Source of the DNA: Bdellovibrionales bacterium
Lineage (GTDB): Bacteria; Bdellovibrionota; Bdellovibrionia; Bdellovibrionales; UBA1609
Assembly: GCA_965205645.1 (NCBI GenBank)
Contig: OZ242172.1
Location: forward strand, 704,122-768,121
Reading direction: 5' to 3'
DNA: 64,000 bases
Shown: piece by piece, positions 31,476-41,866 of the stretch
How the letters are laid out: each line of letters begins with the position of its first letter
Position numbering within the stretch: the first letter of the stretch is position 1
Translations under genes and position numbers: made by a program
Notes under the pieces: model-generated
Databases searched by the model: none
Told to the model about the DNA's origin: nothing
The model's input: the letters and a program-made list of their open reading frames with translations, nothing else

Positions 31476-31523
31476 GGTTTTTTATAAATATTGTAGGTCT
31501 TAAAAATAATAGTTGTTATTGTT

Positions 31524-31796
31524 ATGATACGTACGTTGTTTGTTTCCGCTCCATTAGAGCATATTAAAAGGGAGCGAGTGAAATCCAGTCGCTTAAAAAA
31601 AACTCGTTGGTGGCGAGAAAAAATCAATCAAGGCCAGTGTTATCATTGTGAAAAAAAATTTAATAAGAAAGAACTCAGCATGGATCACTTAATTCCTTTG
31701 GCGCGTGGCGGACACAGTCTTAAAAATAATGTTGTGGTATCCTGTCTAAAATGCAATGCCAAAAAGAAATATAATATTTTATTGAAATCTCATTGA
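31524..31796 (+). CDS. Stand-alone HNH endonuclease
   Basis: CYHC...MDHLIPLARGGHSLKNNVVVSCLKCNAKK gives CxxC/CxxC zinc ligands plus the H-N-N/H core. Confidence 0.8.
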   Translation: MIRTLFVSAPLEHIKRERVKSSRLKKTRWWREKINQGQCYHCEKKFNKKELSMDHLIPLARGGHSLKNNVVVSCLKCNAKKKYNILLKSH

Positions 31797-31820
31797 GTTA
31801 TATATGTAGATTTGTATTTC

Positions 31821-33656
31821 TTAAAAAGATATGTTGGTGTTTGGTAATACTGCTTGTGCTTGTTCATGTAGTGTAGGTTTTAATCCTTTAGGAAAAGGGT
31901 TGTGATCTAGTCTTAGCCATTTTAAGGAAGGCATCTTTGTGAAAAAAACCCAATGTGGAATCCATTGAAATTGATTATTATATAAGTACAACTCTGCCAG
32001 TTGAGGAAGATCGGCTGCTTTTGTTGGCAACCAACTGATGGGGTTATTTTGTAATTCTAATTTTTGTAACTTATATAAACCGTTAAAAGCTGCAGCAGAT
32101 ATTTGAGATATAGTCGTATTGTTTAGTGTGAGCCATTCTAGGTTTTGGAGATAGACAAAGCCGTTTTGTGGTAGCCATGGTATTGGGTTGTTATGCAGTT
32201 TCAATATTGTTACAGAATCTAATCTAGCAAACATGTTTTTATGTAGCATTTCTATCAGGTTATTATTTAAGTAAAGCATAAGTAGTAAACGCATATTCTG
32301 GAAACTATGTTGTGGAATTCGTTGGATATAATTATGAGATAGATTCAGAGTTTTTATGGAAGAAATTCCATTGATGCTCCATACCACTGGAATGTGTTTG
32401 ATGTGGTTGTGGTCCAGCTCTATTTTTTGTATAATAGTTAGTCCTTTAAAAGCGTTGTGCACTATTCGTTTGATGAAATTGTGACTCAGTTTTAGCCATT
32501 CTAATGCATTCAAAGAGTTGAATATATTTTTTGGTAGTTTTTCTATTTTATTATTATTTAGCTTAAGTGTTCTTAATTGAGATAAACCATTAAAGCTATT
32601 TGTCAGTAGCGTTTTTATTTTATTGTTGCTTAAATCCAGTATTTTTAAATTTTTTTGATTATAAAAAAGATATTCTGGAATGGATTCAGTTTTATTATTG
32701 CTGGCATCTAACCATTGAAGTTGAGCTAAGGTTGTAAAGATTTGCGTTGGCCATTTTGGTATTTTATTGTCGTTTATATATAACCACTTTAAAGAAGTTA
32801 GAGCTGCGAAAATATTTTCAGCCAGCTTTTCTATTTTGTTATTATACAGATACAGGTCCTGCAGTTTAGTCAGGGATGCAAAGACATTTTTTGGTAAATC
32901 TCTTATTTGATTATTATGTAAATACAGGGTTTGCAATTTGTGTAGTTGATTGAATGCATATTGTGCAATGTGGTTTATTAAATTGTTATGTAAATACAGG
33001 TTATGTAGCTGAACTTGGGGAGAAAAAAGCCCTTGTTGCAGATCTGTTATTTGATTGTGGTTCAAGTAGAGATCCTCTAACAATGAAAGTTTGTTAAAAA
33101 CACCATCTGGCAGATTTGTTTGTATTTGATTATGGTTTAGAGTTAACCATTTTAATTGAATTAAATGATCAAAAATCTTTTCCGGTAAGATTTTTATTTT
33201 ATTGTGATCTAATAACAGGTATTTTAGAGAAAACAGAAAATGAAAATCATCCGATTTTAGTGTTTCAATGTCTTTGTTAGAAAGATCTAATTTAGCTATT
33301 TTTTTTAGTTCAGTTGATGTGACATGTATGCAATTTTTTTTGAGGATTTTTCTCAAAATAGCTTGTCTGACTTGCGGTGTGCGATTGCAGATATTATGAA
33401 ACGTAGGTTTTGCCGCTGGCTCATTATTTAATTGATTGAAGCGATTGAAATGCCGGTCTATTAGACGATCAAATTGGTCATCCGAATCCGAATCCGAATC
33501 CTTATTTTGGCTGAATGTATTTGTTGTCTGATTTGTGTCCGTAGAGAACATGTTCATAGTGGCCCAGCTACTATAAGTATAAAATGCGATAGCACAGGAT
33601 AATATTTTATGAATGGTTTTTATAGTTTGATTTTTTTTAACTGTTTGTGCATTCAT
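31821..33656 (-). CDS. Secreted leucine-rich-repeat protein, about 19 x 24-aa 'typical' LRRs
   Basis: Repeating LxxLxLxxNxIxxLPxxxFxxL units (e.g. LQTLYLHNNQIRDLPKNVFASLTK). N-terminal signal-like region and a DSDSDSDD linker. Confidence 0.85.
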   Translation of the reverse strand: MNAQTVKKNQTIKTIHKILSCAIAFYTYSSWATMNMFSTDTNQTTNTFSQNKDSDSDSDDQFDRLIDRHFNRFNQLNNEPAAKPTFHNICNRTPQVRQAILRKILKKNCIHVTSTELKKIAKLDLSNKDIETLKSDDFHFLFSLKYLLLDHNKIKILPEKIFDHLIQLKWLTLNHNQIQTNLPDGVFNKLSLLEDLYLNHNQITDLQQGLFSPQVQLHNLYLHNNLINHIAQYAFNQLHKLQTLYLHNNQIRDLPKNVFASLTKLQDLYLYNNKIEKLAENIFAALTSLKWLYINDNKIPKWPTQIFTTLAQLQWLDASNNKTESIPEYLFYNQKNLKILDLSNNKIKTLLTNSFNGLSQLRTLKLNNNKIEKLPKNIFNSLNALEWLKLSHNFIKRIVHNAFKGLTIIQKIELDHNHIKHIPVVWSINGISSIKTLNLSHNYIQRIPQHSFQNMRLLLMLYLNNNLIEMLHKNMFARLDSVTILKLHNNPIPWLPQNGFVYLQNLEWLTLNNTTISQISAAAFNGLYKLQKLELQNNPISWLPTKAADLPQLAELYLYNNQFQWIPHWVFFTKMPSLKWLRLDHNPFPKGLKPTLHEQAQAVLPNTNISF

Positions 33657-34040
33657 GATTTCAGCTCGTCATTATGTTTAAGTGATAGTATTTACTGATA
33701 TACATTCACTTTGTAAAGGTAGTTATTTCAGTATTAACGAAAATAAGCTATTACTCTTGATCGTATCTTTTATTGTTGAGGTATTTTACTGTCAATATAT
33801 ATTAAATATTTTCTAAAAATAGCTATGTAATTTTTACAATATAGATCCTAACTGCGGGAACAGCTGTCATTATTACGATAGGTGTTGGATCCTCAGGGGA
33901 TGTAAAGCCAAAAATCTTAATGGAATACAAGATCTTGATATGGAGTGCACAGTCGAAAGTCTTACTTGTTGTGATAATACTCTAATTTTTATTTATCTTT
34001 TATTTTTTTTGGTATGTAATAAATTAAGACAATAAAAGCA

Positions 34041-34340
34041 ATGCGGAGAAAATATAAAATGCAATATATAAAAAAAATCATTATCTGTTGTTGTGTATTG
34101 CTTCTATCACCTCTGGCTTTCGGTGTTATTTCAGATGTACATATTACGGGCTTTATTGTGAAATATAACAAGGACACAGTTCAGTTGCAGCAAAGAGGCA
34201 ATCGCACAATCACTGTACCAAGAAGTGCTATTCCCAAGGATTTTCCATTAAAGACAGGAAGAGAGGTAACAGTTGTTATCAGTGGCAAAGAATTTATGAA
34301 AAGAATAAATCAAAAACAAGTAGCAGCAAAAAAAGAAACA
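34041..34340 (+). repeat. 300-bp near-identical duplicate (2 mismatches) of 35579..35878
   Basis: Hand alignment at an offset of 1538 bp. The differences are at 34045 (G/A) and about 34168 (A/G, giving Asn/Asp). Confidence 0.9.
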
Positions 34341-34388
34341 AAACAGATCCATAAGCATAAAAAGAGCAAATCAGACACCAGCAAATAA
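34041..34388 (+). CDS. Small secreted protein with a Lys-rich tail (family A, copy 1)
   Basis: Signal peptide IICCCVLLLSPLAFG. Near-identical to the 35579 ORF over the first 100 codons. Confidence 0.65.
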   Translation: MRRKYKMQYIKKIIICCCVLLLSPLAFGVISDVHITGFIVKYNKDTVQLQQRGNRTITVPRSAIPKDFPLKTGREVTVVISGKEFMKRINQKQVAAKKETKQIHKHKKSKSDTSK

Positions 34389-34525
34389 TTTCTGATAAGA
34401 AATATATGATGTACATCATAGTTATGAATCTGATGTTTGGAATTTAAAAATATTAATGGTAGCAGCTAGATTAAAAAACTGAGGATATAGAGTAAGAAAA
34501 GGCAAAGAAGCGAAAAGGAAATATT

Positions 34526-35443
34526 ATGAAAACTAAGATAATTAAACTCAGTATAGTAATGGGATTTTTATTTTTTTCAGCAAGCAGTTTTGGTGTGTTT
34601 GATATTGGTGCTGAGTATGTAGCAGATTGTTATGCAGAAGATAGTGCTATTCATGCTTTATATAGAGGTGCTGCTAAATTGGCTAATACTTTGTCTATTA
34701 ACTGTGGTTCTCCTAAAAATAGTTATATACCCAGAGATACAAAGTTGCAGGCGTTGAGTGTGGCTGTGGTTAGAAAAGATGAAGATGGTTATAATGTAAT
34801 TGAGCATAATAATATTACGCTTAATAAACCTCCTGGTGGCATTGTGGATTATTTACCGGGGAATATCAATAATAACCAATGGTTAAGAAAACAGCTGGGT
34901 CGTTTTCAATTAAAAGATCGGGATGAAATAAGGCTTTTATCTCATTATATAGATCCTGACTTAGTAGATTCTTTTTCTCAAGAGCGTTTGAAGAAGAACG
35001 TGCATTCTGTTGGGTTTCGGCCTATTCAGCGTCCTAAATATTCTAAACCTGTTCGCGATTATTTTCATTGCCATTATATAAACTCATCACCACATAAAAC
35101 CTTACCACCAATAATAATATATAGAAACATGAATAAAATGTGCGAACAGCCGAATAAAAATAGATATCATCTATGCTCCTCTCCTATATCTTGTATAGAG
35201 AATGGCACCAAAGTGGACTCACATACTGTTTGTTTACTAAATAAGGATGGTTCATGTCCTTCAGCTACTGAGTGTGCTCTATCGGGATCAAGCCCTAAGA
35301 GAGAGAAGAATAGCGCGATTTTAGCACATTCTACTAGGTATAATTCAGAAACAAACAGATTTGAGGAGTGGTATGCTAATGATTTATCTGCGTACGATGA
35401 GCAAGATACAGACACTAATAGCATACAAAATGCAGTACAGTGA
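34526..35443 (+). CDS. Secreted Cys-containing protein (family B, copy 1), unknown function
   Basis: Signal peptide KLSIVMGFLFFSASSFG. Paralog of the 36077 ORF (shared DCYAED, YLPGNINNN, VHS(V/I)G(F/Y)RPIQRPK, GSCPSAT). Confidence 0.6.
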   Translation: MKTKIIKLSIVMGFLFFSASSFGVFDIGAEYVADCYAEDSAIHALYRGAAKLANTLSINCGSPKNSYIPRDTKLQALSVAVVRKDEDGYNVIEHNNITLNKPPGGIVDYLPGNINNNQWLRKQLGRFQLKDRDEIRLLSHYIDPDLVDSFSQERLKKNVHSVGFRPIQRPKYSKPVRDYFHCHYINSSPHKTLPPIIIYRNMNKMCEQPNKNRYHLCSSPISCIENGTKVDSHTVCLLNKDGSCPSATECALSGSSPKREKNSAILAHSTRYNSETNRFEEWYANDLSAYDEQDTDTNSIQNAVQ

Positions 35444-35578
35444 TTGTAGTAATAAGTGCAAGACTATTAGTCGGTATATACAGATAAAAGTTTTGTTTGC
35501 TATTGGTAATTTTCTTATTTTTATTTATTTTTTATCATTTTTGATAGGTAATAAAATAAGATAAAAATCTGAGGAACA

Positions 35579-35878
35579 ATGCAGAGAAAATATAAAATGC
35601 AATATATAAAAAAAATCATTATCTGTTGTTGTGTATTGCTTCTATCACCTCTGGCTTTCGGTGTTATTTCAGATGTACATATTACGGGCTTTATTGTGAA
35701 ATATGACAAGGACACAGTTCAGTTGCAGCAAAGAGGCAATCGCACAATCACTGTACCAAGAAGTGCTATTCCCAAGGATTTTCCATTAAAGACAGGAAGA
35801 GAGGTAACAGTTGTTATCAGTGGCAAAGAATTTATGAAAAGAATAAATCAAAAACAAGTAGCAGCAAAAAAAGAAACA
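35579..35878 (+). repeat. Second copy of the 300-bp near-identical duplicate
   Basis: See 34041..34340. Confidence 0.9.
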
Positions 35879-35929
35879 CAGAAAATCAGTTTAAAACCAC
35901 AAAAGAAAAAAACAGATGTTAAAAAATAA
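35579..35929 (+). CDS. Small secreted protein with a Lys-rich tail (family A, copy 2)
   Basis: See 34041..34388. Confidence 0.65.
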   Translation: MQRKYKMQYIKKIIICCCVLLLSPLAFGVISDVHITGFIVKYDKDTVQLQQRGNRTITVPRSAIPKDFPLKTGREVTVVISGKEFMKRINQKQVAAKKETQKISLKPQKKKTDVKK

Positions 35930-36076
35930 TTTCTGATGTGCAGATGCATGAATACTAAAAGTGGATAGCAAGGTTTATGTTTGTACTTTAAGGGTGTTTT
36001 AATGACGGTAATTTAGGGGTTTCATAGTAACAGGGATATATAAAACAAGACAGGTTAAGAAAAGATATAGGGGGTA

Positions 36077-36982
36077 ATGATGACTCAAAAGATGATAAGA
36101 CTTAGTTTGGTTATGGGGTTTTTATTTTTTTCAGCAAGCAGTTTTGGTGTTGATATTGATGTTCATACTAATCTAGTGAAAGATTGTTATGCAGATGATA
36201 ATGCCAGTCATGCTCTATATCAAGGCGCTGCGATGCTTAATGATACTTTGCCGATTAATTGTGATGGTGATAAAGAGCGTTCCATATCTAGAGATACAAA
36301 ATTGCTAGCTCTTCGCGTAGCTGTCGTTGGAAAAGACAAAGACGGCTACAATATTATTAAACATAACGATATTGTGGTAAATAAACCGGCTGGTAGCATT
36401 AAGGATTATTTGCCGGGGAATATCAACAATAATACAGGATTGAGAAAAAAACTTGGATATCTTAAGGTAACAGATGGGGATGAAATAAGAGTTTTATCTC
36501 ATTACGTAGATCATTTTGTTCAGGAGCAACCAAAGAAAAATGTGCATTCCATTGGGTATCGGCCTATTCAGCGTCCTAAAGATTCTAAGTCTTCTAGTTC
36601 TTTGATCTGTCAGTATAGAAATGGACCACCAATGCTAATATATAGAAAAAATCTATGTAAACAATCGAATAAGGAAGTAAATTATGTGTGCTCTTCTCCT
36701 GTAGTGTGTATAGAGCAGATAATGGGTAAAATCAAAGTGGAGACCCATGCTATTTGTTTAGCGAATAAAAATGGTTCATGTCCTTCAGCGACTAAATGTG
36801 CTGCTGTTGAGGATGGTAAAGAGCATGAGTTATATACAGTTAATGCATTTCCTACTTATTATAATAAGACAAGTAAAACATTTAGGAATGACTTGGTTAG
36901 TAGAAATTTAGATGGAGGAAAGTTTGGTGGTCATACGCTAACTAAGGATATGAATAATGGATCCGTAGATGGAGTACAATAA
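36077..36982 (+). CDS. Secreted Cys-containing protein (family B, copy 2)
   Basis: See 34526..35443. The mature regions are only roughly half identical by eye. Confidence 0.6.
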   Translation: MMTQKMIRLSLVMGFLFFSASSFGVDIDVHTNLVKDCYADDNASHALYQGAAMLNDTLPINCDGDKERSISRDTKLLALRVAVVGKDKDGYNIIKHNDIVVNKPAGSIKDYLPGNINNNTGLRKKLGYLKVTDGDEIRVLSHYVDHFVQEQPKKNVHSIGYRPIQRPKDSKSSSSLICQYRNGPPMLIYRKNLCKQSNKEVNYVCSSPVVCIEQIMGKIKVETHAICLANKNGSCPSATKCAAVEDGKEHELYTVNAFPTYYNKTSKTFRNDLVSRNLDGGKFGGHTLTKDMNNGSVDGVQ

Positions 36983-37143
36983 TATACTGTTACATTCTTC
37001 TATAGTTTCTAATCTGTGTCTCAAAAAATACTAATTGTATTTTTTACACTCTTGTTTTGATACTCTTAGTGTATTATTTTGCTTTTATGAAAAAGATATA
37101 TTATGTTTCTTGAAAAATAGCACTTTAAAACAGAAGGTGGGTT

Positions 37144-37470
37144 ATGAAATATTTTTTTGTTTTTGGTTTGTTATTATCTGGTTCAGCTTATGCTGTAGAT
37201 GTTGATTGTGAAAAATTAATTGAGAATTATATAAAAAGTGCTAAAGCTTATAGTATGGGTGGAGATCTCACTATACGGGACAGAAGAGCGCTTTCACCGG
37301 AAGATAGAGAATCAGAGTTTAATGAATCTCTGGCCAGTTATGACATAGCTATATTAAACCTCATAACCAGTGATATTCAATTGAAACAATGTCAATTAAG
37401 TGAATCTGACACGGCTAGAATAGATAAGGTAGTATCTCGTCTTATAAACCGTCCTCTAACATTTAAATAA
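37144..37470 (+). CDS. Small secreted protein (108 aa)
   Basis: Signal peptide MKYFFVFGLLLSGSAYAVD is shared with the next ORF. Confidence 0.5.
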   Translation: MKYFFVFGLLLSGSAYAVDVDCEKLIENYIKSAKAYSMGGDLTIRDRRALSPEDRESEFNESLASYDIAILNLITSDIQLKQCQLSESDTARIDKVVSRLINRPLTFK

Positions 37471-37517
37471 TTGATAGAAATTGTTATTTACAGTAACTTA
37501 AACAAAAGGGAAAAATT

Positions 37518-37844
37518 ATGAAATATTTTATTATCTTTGGCTTGTTATTATCTGGTTCAGCTTATGCTGTAGACTGCCAAGAGGAGTTAGATAACTATTC
37601 AGCAAAGAATGCAGGTTTTAAAACAGTTTATAACACTGCAGTAGATAAAATAGCGTTTTCAGATGGGGATAGCGTATCGGCAATAATGCAGAAGGTTAAG
37701 AATGCTCATATGGATCGCTGGTATAGTCTTTATGAATTAAATGTGTGCTACTATGAAACAAAGCAATGGCGTATAGAGGGTAAATGGCCGGATCAAGAAA
37801 TAATAGAAAAAGTTATTAATGAAGCAGACAGAACTCCTTGGTGA
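37518..37844 (+). CDS. Small secreted protein (108 aa)
   Basis: Signal peptide MKYFIIFGLLLSGSAYAVD. The mature part is unrelated to the previous ORF by eye. Confidence 0.5.
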   Translation: MKYFIIFGLLLSGSAYAVDCQEELDNYSAKNAGFKTVYNTAVDKIAFSDGDSVSAIMQKVKNAHMDRWYSLYELNVCYYETKQWRIEGKWPDQEIIEKVINEADRTPW

Positions 37845-38100
37845 AGCAAGAAGCTTTGCCAGCTGAGTAAAAATTTAATTTTTTTTTAACTTGCTTTCCT
37901 AAAACTCCTTCAATAAGATTGGCTTCCCTTAAATCTATAGGTTTAAGTGGAAGCTCTTTGACAATTGAATACTAACGTAAAGAGCATTTGTGTTTCCTAT
38001 TTCTTTAGTGGGCTAAATAGTAGGAGCGTCTTCGTGTCAAATAGCCATGCTGGTAAAACAACTTGGCTAATACACAAAGGACAAGCACAAGTGTATAAAG

Positions 38101-38152
38101 TGACTCATATTTTTCATAAAAAGAGAGAATCCGACTGAAATCATTCTTAGCA
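38101..38152 (+). other. 5' half of the 23S rRNA processing stem
   Basis: CATTCTTAGC (38143..38152) pairs perfectly with GCTAAGAATG (41201..41210). GTGACTCATA (38101..) pairs 9/10 with TATGAGTTAC (41238..41247). AATCCGACTGAAA pairs imperfectly with TTTTGAGTACGGAT. Confidence 0.6.
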
Positions 38153-38174
38153 ATGTTCAGTCAAAAATTTAGAA

Positions 38175-41176
<3,002 letters not shown>

Positions 41177-41200
41177 ACTAAATCTATTGATTGTTATAAA

Positions 41201-41247
41201 GCTAAGAATGTTTTGAGTACGGATAATTTTTTTTAAGTATGAGTTAC
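41201..41247 (+). other. 3' half of the 23S rRNA processing stem
   Basis: See 38101..38152. Confidence 0.6.
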
Positions 41248-41276
41248 TTTATTTTTGTTAGTATTTAATTTTGATT

Positions 41277-41393
41277 TGCTGGTGTCTCTAGCGGCGGGGC
41301 CACACCTGTTCCCATCCCGAACACAGAAGTTAAGCCTGCCAGCGGCGATGGTACTATGGGGCTGACCCCATGGGAGAGTAGCACGATGCCAGC
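41277..41393 (+). rRNA. rrf: 5S ribosomal RNA
   Basis: CCACACCTGTTCCCATCCCGAACACAGAAGTTAAGC...CCCATGGGAGAGTAGCACGATGCCAGC, followed by a T-run. Confidence 0.95.
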
Positions 41394-41866
41394 TTTTTTT
41401 TATTTATTGAACAGTATAAGTACTTATCCCATTACCTTATATACGTATTTGTTTCGTATCCCAGATAAAATAAATTGTAATGTTTTAACCATGTCGTTTT
41501 GCCTGTTTCTCGGGACAAGGAGAAAAAACGAGCGGTGAGAAAGACGAAATAAACGCGTAAACATAGACGTCAATTTGACTGGCTTATTGACATTATGTCG
41601 AACAATATTCCTGATCATAGGTCACAGCAATCATCATGCAGCAGCTTTTTGCCTGTAAAATTTTCCTTGTATACCTGGTTACAATTTTTATCTTATGTTT
41701 AAGTTATTTTTCACAAAAGGTACATATGGATTAAATAAGTTTGGTGAAGATCCTTTAAAGTGTTACATTGTCCAGTAAAATAAATATTTGGAAGTATTAA
41801 AAATAAAATTAATTTTTTTAATTGTTTCTTCATTTACCTTCTCAGCATTCTTTTTAGCATGTTCTG

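Follow-up and report, generated by a model that had tools for sequence, protein, structure and literature searches.

Bacterial paralogues that evolve in concert by gene conversion include tufA/tufB, the rRNA operons and the opa and pil families of Neisseria. Another group of recombining loci is formed by the polymorphic toxin-immunity cassettes, such as the Rhs and contact-dependent inhibition (CDI) systems, in which the N-terminal delivery region of the large protein is conserved, its C-terminal tip varies and the immunity gene co-varies. Here we analyzed a stretch of 64,000 nucleotides (nt), referred to as the window, from contig OZ242172.1 of a Bdellovibrionales bacterium (positions 704,122 to 768,121; assembly GCA_965205645.1), in which a cassette encoding one small and one large secreted protein occurs twice in tandem. 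A 302-nt block shared by the two small genes is very probably a recent gene-conversion tract, one instance of a process that recurs in this gene family. The genes and the two copies of the tract are as follows.

34041-34388, plus strand: small gene A, an open reading frame (ORF) of 115 amino acids (aa) from the first ATG and 109 aa from the probable start at 34059
34039-34340, plus strand: copy A of the probable conversion tract, comprising a 20-nt leader with the Shine-Dalgarno sequence, the signal peptide and the beta-barrel core of small A
34526-35443, plus strand: large gene A, an ORF of 305 aa
35579-35929, plus strand: small gene B, an ORF of 116 aa, with the probable start at 35597
35577-35878, plus strand: copy B of the probable conversion tract, the counterpart in small B, identical to copy A at 300 of 302 nt
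36077-36982, plus strand: large gene B, an ORF of 301 aa and a paralogue of large A

The shared tract of the two small genes

A repeat search returned a direct repeat (34039-34338 and 35577-35876, 99% identity, spacing 1538), and base-by-base comparison at this offset gave the 302-nt tract listed above, with two differences: G/A at 34045/35583 and A/G at 34167/35705, the second of which exchanges Asn for Asp. The borders of the tract are sharp, mismatches being dense upstream from 34038 and downstream from 34341. In a sliding comparison, identity reaches 0.98-1.00 within the tract and drops to 0.44-0.58 in the small-gene 3' tails and the spacer and to 0.24-0.86 over the large genes; overall, the two cassettes are 25-85% identical outside the tract, and the large A and large B proteins share 54-57% of their residues. 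The longest identical run covers 173 columns, while the maximum in 5000 shuffles of the 405 differences was 47 columns (0/5000 reached the observed run). Within the 1.56 Mb genome the tract is present in these two copies only. A sequence-only reading of the window had described the cassette as present twice at an offset of 1538 with a nearly identical block and a single Asn/Asp change, and had noted strong divergence of the tails, the spacers and the large genes; the alignments bear out both descriptions. Uniform divergence across the cassette, which that reading had named as the result that would speak against it, is contradicted by the high identity in the tract and the far lower values in the flanks.

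Synonymous (dS) and nonsynonymous (dN) divergence per site was obtained from Nei-Gojobori counts. Codons 1-100 of small A and small B have a dS of 0 (no difference at 63.8 synonymous sites) and a dN of 0.009; in their tails dS is saturated and dN is 0.48, and for the large genes dS is 0.72 and dN 0.33. Two syntenic contigs from relatives were included in the comparison, namely L029 (ENA ERZ25067264), which is close, and L030, derived from a sponge metagenome, with 76-83% identity. The divergence of L029 amounts to a dS of 0.046-0.079 in five flanking genes. It carries a single cassette, corresponding to B: window positions 31500-33848 and 35406-38200 are collinear with it at 94.8-94.9% identity, and 33849-35405 is missing. 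A remnant of the large A 3' end survives immediately upstream of the small gene in L029, the rest of large A being absent, which indicates that cassette A was deleted in that lineage and that the duplication is older than the split. An old tandem duplication is also indicated by the dS of ~0.7 between large A and large B, a value roughly equal to the divergence from the more distant L030.

In the four-way alignment, B is 95-100% identical to L029 in the flanks and the large gene and 78-95% identical inside the tract. Large gene B matches the orthologous region of L029 at 92-100% nt identity, and the 3' tail of small B with its flanks at ~95%; between small B and the small gene of L029, dS is 0.40 in the core (19.5 synonymous differences) and 0 in the tail. 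Informative sites follow the same pattern. Inside the tract, A and B agree against L029 at 28 sites, B agrees with L029 at one and A agrees with L029 at one; downstream of it the corresponding numbers are 26, 356 and 12. The alignment is thus phylogenetically discordant, with the paralogues grouping together in the tract and the orthologues in the flanks.

The small-gene core is under strong purifying selection, with a dN/dS ratio (omega) of ~0.1 between B and its orthologue, and the large genes are fast-evolving, with an omega of 0.32 in the N-domain, 0.62 in the Cys-rich module and 1.0 in the tail. The constraint acting on the small core at the protein level is real, yet it cannot account for zero synonymous change. 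Since the same codons are free to vary between orthologues, constraint on either the nucleotide or the protein sequence cannot explain the identity of A and B. The sequence-only reading had left the choice between gene conversion and strong constraint undecided, and gene conversion is supported by a dS of 0 in the tract against 0.72 for the large genes and 0.40 for the orthologue.

We propose that non-reciprocal homologous recombination copied the leader, the signal peptide and the beta-barrel core from one small gene onto the other. This would have taken place after the split from the relative with a flanking dS of ~0.05-0.08, and only two substitutions would have been gained since. Copy A is the likelier donor, since B is the copy found to differ from its orthologue. 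It is likely that the second ATG (34059 in A, 35597 in B) is the start codon of the small genes, given a GGAG motif 10 nt upstream and the nearby start of the L030 orthologue; with this start, the difference at 34045 would fall within the Shine-Dalgarno sequence, which reads GGAG in A and AGAG in B, and outside the codons.

Two points weigh against this account. At the sites where A and B agree against L029, the outgroup L030 sides with L029 over the 5' half (34079-34133) and with A and B over the 3' half (34175-34329) of the tract; moreover, the whole comparison rests on the assembled sequence as given. The mosaic state of L030 implies at least one further event in a relative and makes the direction of transfer ambiguous. 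The history of the family is mosaic, with a transfer from A to B favored but not certain.

Of the other explanations, the one that fares best, though still improbable, is that the identity stems from a partial duplication of recent date or from an imported allele, a segment of another strain having taken the place of part of the locus, with no intragenomic conversion. The locus is highly dynamic among close relatives (cassette A is deleted in L029, and genes have been gained or lost at locus 2, described below), and the agreement with the outgroup is mosaic inside the tract, both of which are on the side of such an event. However, import alone cannot make two resident paralogues identical over the same 302 nt, both copies lie in flanks that are collinear with the relatives, and there is no third copy in the genome. 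Even less probable is an artefact of assembly or polishing, in which real copies that differ were homogenized in the consensus, or in which the duplication itself is spurious. That the genome is a metagenome-assembled single contig speaks for it, but the flanks of the two copies are just 40-80% identical, which excludes a spurious duplication, and two differences persist within the tract; in addition, the organization of cassette B is seen in independent assemblies of relatives, and tracts of this kind recur at two further loci in the genome and on the complete chromosome of another species. Finally, it is scarcely credible that the 302 nt are held identical solely by purifying selection, whether on the protein or on an RNA or DNA signal embedded in them, with no recombination: the core of the small protein is indeed constrained (omega ~0.1) and conserved phylum-wide in the family, but A and B show 0 synonymous differences at 63.8 sites while the same codons show 19.5 against the close relative, and Rfam has no match within the tract.

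With both copies, an escaped orthologue and an outgroup available, the conversion at this locus makes a textbook-quality and well-dated case.

Conversion at other loci of the family

The sequence-only reading had also pointed to a third, diverged family member at the right window edge. This gene is real and is cut by the end of the window, and a fourth copy lies just past it.

63783-64000, minus strand: 3' part of the small-family gene X (100 aa), continuing past the window end and adjoining bamA; first gene of locus 2

Locus 2 extends past the right window edge beside bamA and encodes, on the minus strand, a Cys-rich protein of 185 aa, small protein Y of 98 aa, two Cys-rich proteins of 219 and 175 aa, and small protein X. 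X and its tandem paralogue Y share 96.3% nt identity, and the identical block extends across the 18-nt spacer into the 3' ends of the upstream genes, where it takes in their last 11 codons (EEPEDAGSTQ). These upstream Cys-rich genes are otherwise very diverged (dS 0.7-1.4, dN 0.5-0.65). The orthologous locus, L052, is found in the same relative metagenome-assembled genome (MAG) as L029 and differs in gene content. Y shares 95.6% identity with its orthologue and X only 86.7% with its positional orthologue; judging by these alignments, X is a chimera whose 5' two-thirds are of the Y type and which has kept its own 3' tail. P0007 was considered as an orthologue of locus 2 and rejected, as it is a member of another subfamily. 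Compared with the array of this genome, L052 has an additional small gene and an additional Cys-rich gene, and at L052 7637-8198 two inserted small ORFs (98 and 74 aa), toxin-antitoxin-like by eye, separate a small gene from the Cys-rich gene that follows.

Locus 3 (genome positions 1546620-1547714 and 1547745-1548851, minus strand) consists of tandem paralogues of 364 and 368 aa, each with an N-domain and two Cys-rich modules and ending in D[SG]DATQ. A tract of ~230 nt with 95% identity lies inside these genes, which are otherwise 50-60% identical. In another species of the genus, copies situated 1 Mb apart have small genes that are ~97% identical, and the N-domains of the large genes upstream of them are 62-87% identical. 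Conversion between tandem paralogues is thus recurrent in the family.

Several further duplications were observed. Downstream of the cassettes, two adjacent genes (37144-37470 and 37518-37844) encode secreted proteins of 108 aa whose signal-peptide DNA is 93% identical over 58 nt and whose mature parts are unrelated. The signal-peptide segment of the first gene matches the L029 orthologue of the second at 98%, and this looks like another short exchange between neighbors. Identical pairs of a Cys-rich gene and a small gene are found at L033 and L034 in another species (OZ241921.1, ~29 kb apart), with a transposase-like ORF nearby, and look like a recent segmental duplication. Just past locus 2, at genome positions 770709-772999 on the plus strand, a further cassette of two genes is duplicated (220+159 aa and 215+143 aa); in the relative, the orthologues of its large proteins match Pfam DUF6973.

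The gene pair, its proteins and their possible function

The host genome is a metagenome-assembled single contig of 1.56 Mb with ~35% GC. Genomes of the genus measure 1.3-2.3 Mb at about 90-95% completeness, with a CheckM value of ~91% for the lineage, related genomes are titled "MAG: Bdellovibrionales bacterium", and the source organism is an uncultured relative of Bdellovibrio belonging to a host-associated genus with a reduced genome.

The two-gene cassette of the sequence-only reading is present twice as described, but its order, small gene then large gene, occurs only here and in the orthologues L029 and L030; the unit that holds family-wide is large gene then small gene. At nearly all loci other than this one, a small gene lies directly downstream of a module gene on the same strand, with a gap of -56 to +198 nt that is mostly at or below 25 nt, the two genes often overlapping. 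The same order is seen by eye at three distant loci (L043, L045 and L046). Among the genomes of the genus, both genes are present in eight, neither in six, the module alone in one and the small gene alone in none (kinship uncontrolled). In cultivable Bdellovibrio the pair appears to be present in one or two copies. It is an unannotated pair conserved across the Bdellovibrionota, multiplied in this genus, in which the module is sometimes fused to ankyrin or pentapeptide repeats. No description of it was found in the literature searched. A scan of 33600-38200 for promoters and terminators gave fewer hits than shuffled sequence and zero terminators, and is uninformative on operon structure.

Behind its signal peptide, the small protein is modeled by AlphaFold2 as a five-strand OB/S1-like barrel, with a predicted local distance difference test score (pLDDT) of 88-93 in the core, followed by a long Lys-rich C-terminal helix, in agreement with the secreted, Lys-tailed and beta-rich protein that had been read from the sequence. 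It has no match at threshold in Pfam, NCBIfam or PDB. The best fold matches, to the NusA S1 domain and eIF5A, are sub-significant (best Foldseek E 0.011, template modeling score ~0.4, PDB and viral libraries), and weak profile matches to RNase P p29, Hfq-related and KOWx families fall under the Pfam and NCBIfam cut-offs, with a PDB profile E of at least 0.08. Searched against 1.84 billion proteins, a profile of the family recovered 276 representatives (50% identity) with E <= 0.001, and 0 of the 10 representatives that were looked up carry a name. Of 301 sampled Bdellovibrionota genomes, 48 carry the family, mostly as one or two copies; within the genus, 8 of 15 genomes have it, with up to nine copies.

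In the large proteins, the signal peptide is followed by an N-domain that varies, a C-terminal Cys-rich module that is conserved and a disordered, low-complexity tail. The module starts with C-x-Y, contains six to seven invariant cysteines and ends with CP[ST]A..C; in large A it starts at C182, and the tail of this protein ends in NAVQ. Within the genus the tails end in a G-[SA]-[VT]-[QKR] type motif (GSTQ, GSVQ, GAVQ, GSVK, GVR, NAVQ or GVQ; for example at 35432-35443 and 36971-36982), which may be a sorting or recognition signal. The domains that precede the module include a novel beta-rich N-domain (large A and large B), ankyrin repeats and pentapeptide repeats; in larger Bdellovibrio-like genomes there is no domain in front of it. 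Searches of Pfam, NCBIfam, PDB, PADLOC and PHROG gave no match for the large protein or its module, and the sole name in the source is "hypothetical protein". The structure model of the large protein is poor (pLDDT 54.7), and a fold search on it is meaningless.

Our tentative proposal, which we hold as possible rather than probable, is that the small protein may be a dedicated partner (chaperone or adaptor) of the Cys-rich module in a secreted complex. Several features suggest such a role: the small protein shows no co-variation with its diverged neighbors, it is co-converted with the tail of its partner at locus 2, it is translationally coupled to its partner elsewhere, and both proteins have signal peptides, with genes that adjoin and co-occur. 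The small barrel would bind an invariant feature of the module or of its tail, so that one uniform partner could serve diverging cargo proteins with varied N-domains, and homogenized small genes would thereby be tolerated or even favored. Several points weigh against this role. The putative interaction of the small and large proteins is deduced from gene context; the coupling that is tight elsewhere is loose here, with spacers of 135-147 nt on either side of each small gene (135 nt from large A to small B); and the genome has 12 matches to the Cys-rich module and four small genes, many module proteins having no adjacent partner. A pairing of the basic tail of the small protein with an acidic tail of its partner was considered and dropped, the small tails being usually basic (+5 to +13 in most copies of the genus) and the partner tails varying between -6 and +6.

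A broader and more speculative version, which we regard as doubtful, is that the module and its small partner could form a Bdellovibrionota-wide two-component device for export or targeting, of which typical relatives carry a short stand-alone pair. In the reduced, host-associated genus it would have become a platform, multiplied and with eukaryote-like domains (ankyrin, pentapeptide repeats) and the novel N-domain fused before the module; conversion would hold the partner and the end of the tail (G-[SA]-[VT]-[QKR]) uniform, which would let a single recognition system handle many diverging cargoes. If this were true, the pair would offer a handle on how these uncultured relatives of predatory bacteria interact with their eukaryotic hosts. 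In our view the gene pair is worth more than the conversion event itself.

Less likely again is a toxin-immunity-like module, with the Cys-rich protein as a secreted toxin whose site of action would be an envelope compartment, the small protein as its exported immunity protein, and the homogenized small genes as a reflection of shared immunity specificity. The arrangement of a large secreted gene with a small gene immediately downstream and often overlapping, the signal peptides on both proteins, the tandem multiplication, the fast evolution of the large genes (omega 0.3-1.0) and the position of the lineage within a predatory phylum are all consistent with this. However, no toxin, immunity, defense or phage family was matched in Pfam, NCBIfam, PADLOC, PHROG or PDB; the architecture is reversed, the C-terminal module being conserved and the N-terminus variable; the ankyrin and pentapeptide N-termini resemble domains for host interaction and not for delivery; and near-identical small genes stand beside diverged neighbors without co-variation.

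Two other neighbors of the cassettes were noted. Divergent from small A lies a gene (31821-33656, minus strand) for a secreted protein of 611 aa made up nearly entirely of leucine-rich repeats (LRR_8, E = 1.6e-85), which is ~95% conserved in L029. Directly downstream of the cassettes is a 23S and 5S rRNA unit (38174-41394), with no 16S upstream of it in the window.

Comparison with known systems

The eukaryote-like repeat proteins of sponge and protist symbionts (ankyrin, leucine-rich) share with this locus a host-associated, reduced lineage and secreted ankyrin, leucine-rich and pentapeptide proteins. A comparable, reduced Bdellovibrionales MAG from Lamellodysidea sponges has been described as probably non-predatory (PMC7313196). 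The Cys-rich module with its small OB-like partner, in contrast, is absent from the literature searched on these symbionts. The small beta-barrels of the OB, S1 and KOW type have in common with the small protein its predicted five-strand barrel core, but all matches to them are below significance, and the small protein is exported by a signal peptide, which makes a nucleic-acid-binding role as in those families unlikely.

The Rhs and CDI cassettes resemble the present locus in their tandem arrays, in a large secreted gene with a small linked gene downstream, in the fast evolution of the large genes and in recombination. They differ in that the small protein is hypervariable there and conserved phylum-wide here.

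The closest parallel is provided by concerted evolution through gene conversion, with which this locus shares a sharp-bordered, near-identical tract in diverged paralogues, homogenized synonymous sites, paralogues that are closer than orthologues, and recurrence in a tandem family of exported proteins. It differs from those cases in that the tract is confined to the small partner gene, or to a sub-domain at other loci of the family, next to large genes that diverge; programmed variation with silent donor cassettes is not in evidence, and the organism is an uncultured Bdellovibrionales MAG with a reduced genome. The mechanism of conversion is an ordinary one that involves no new principle; what is new is the gene family on which it acts.

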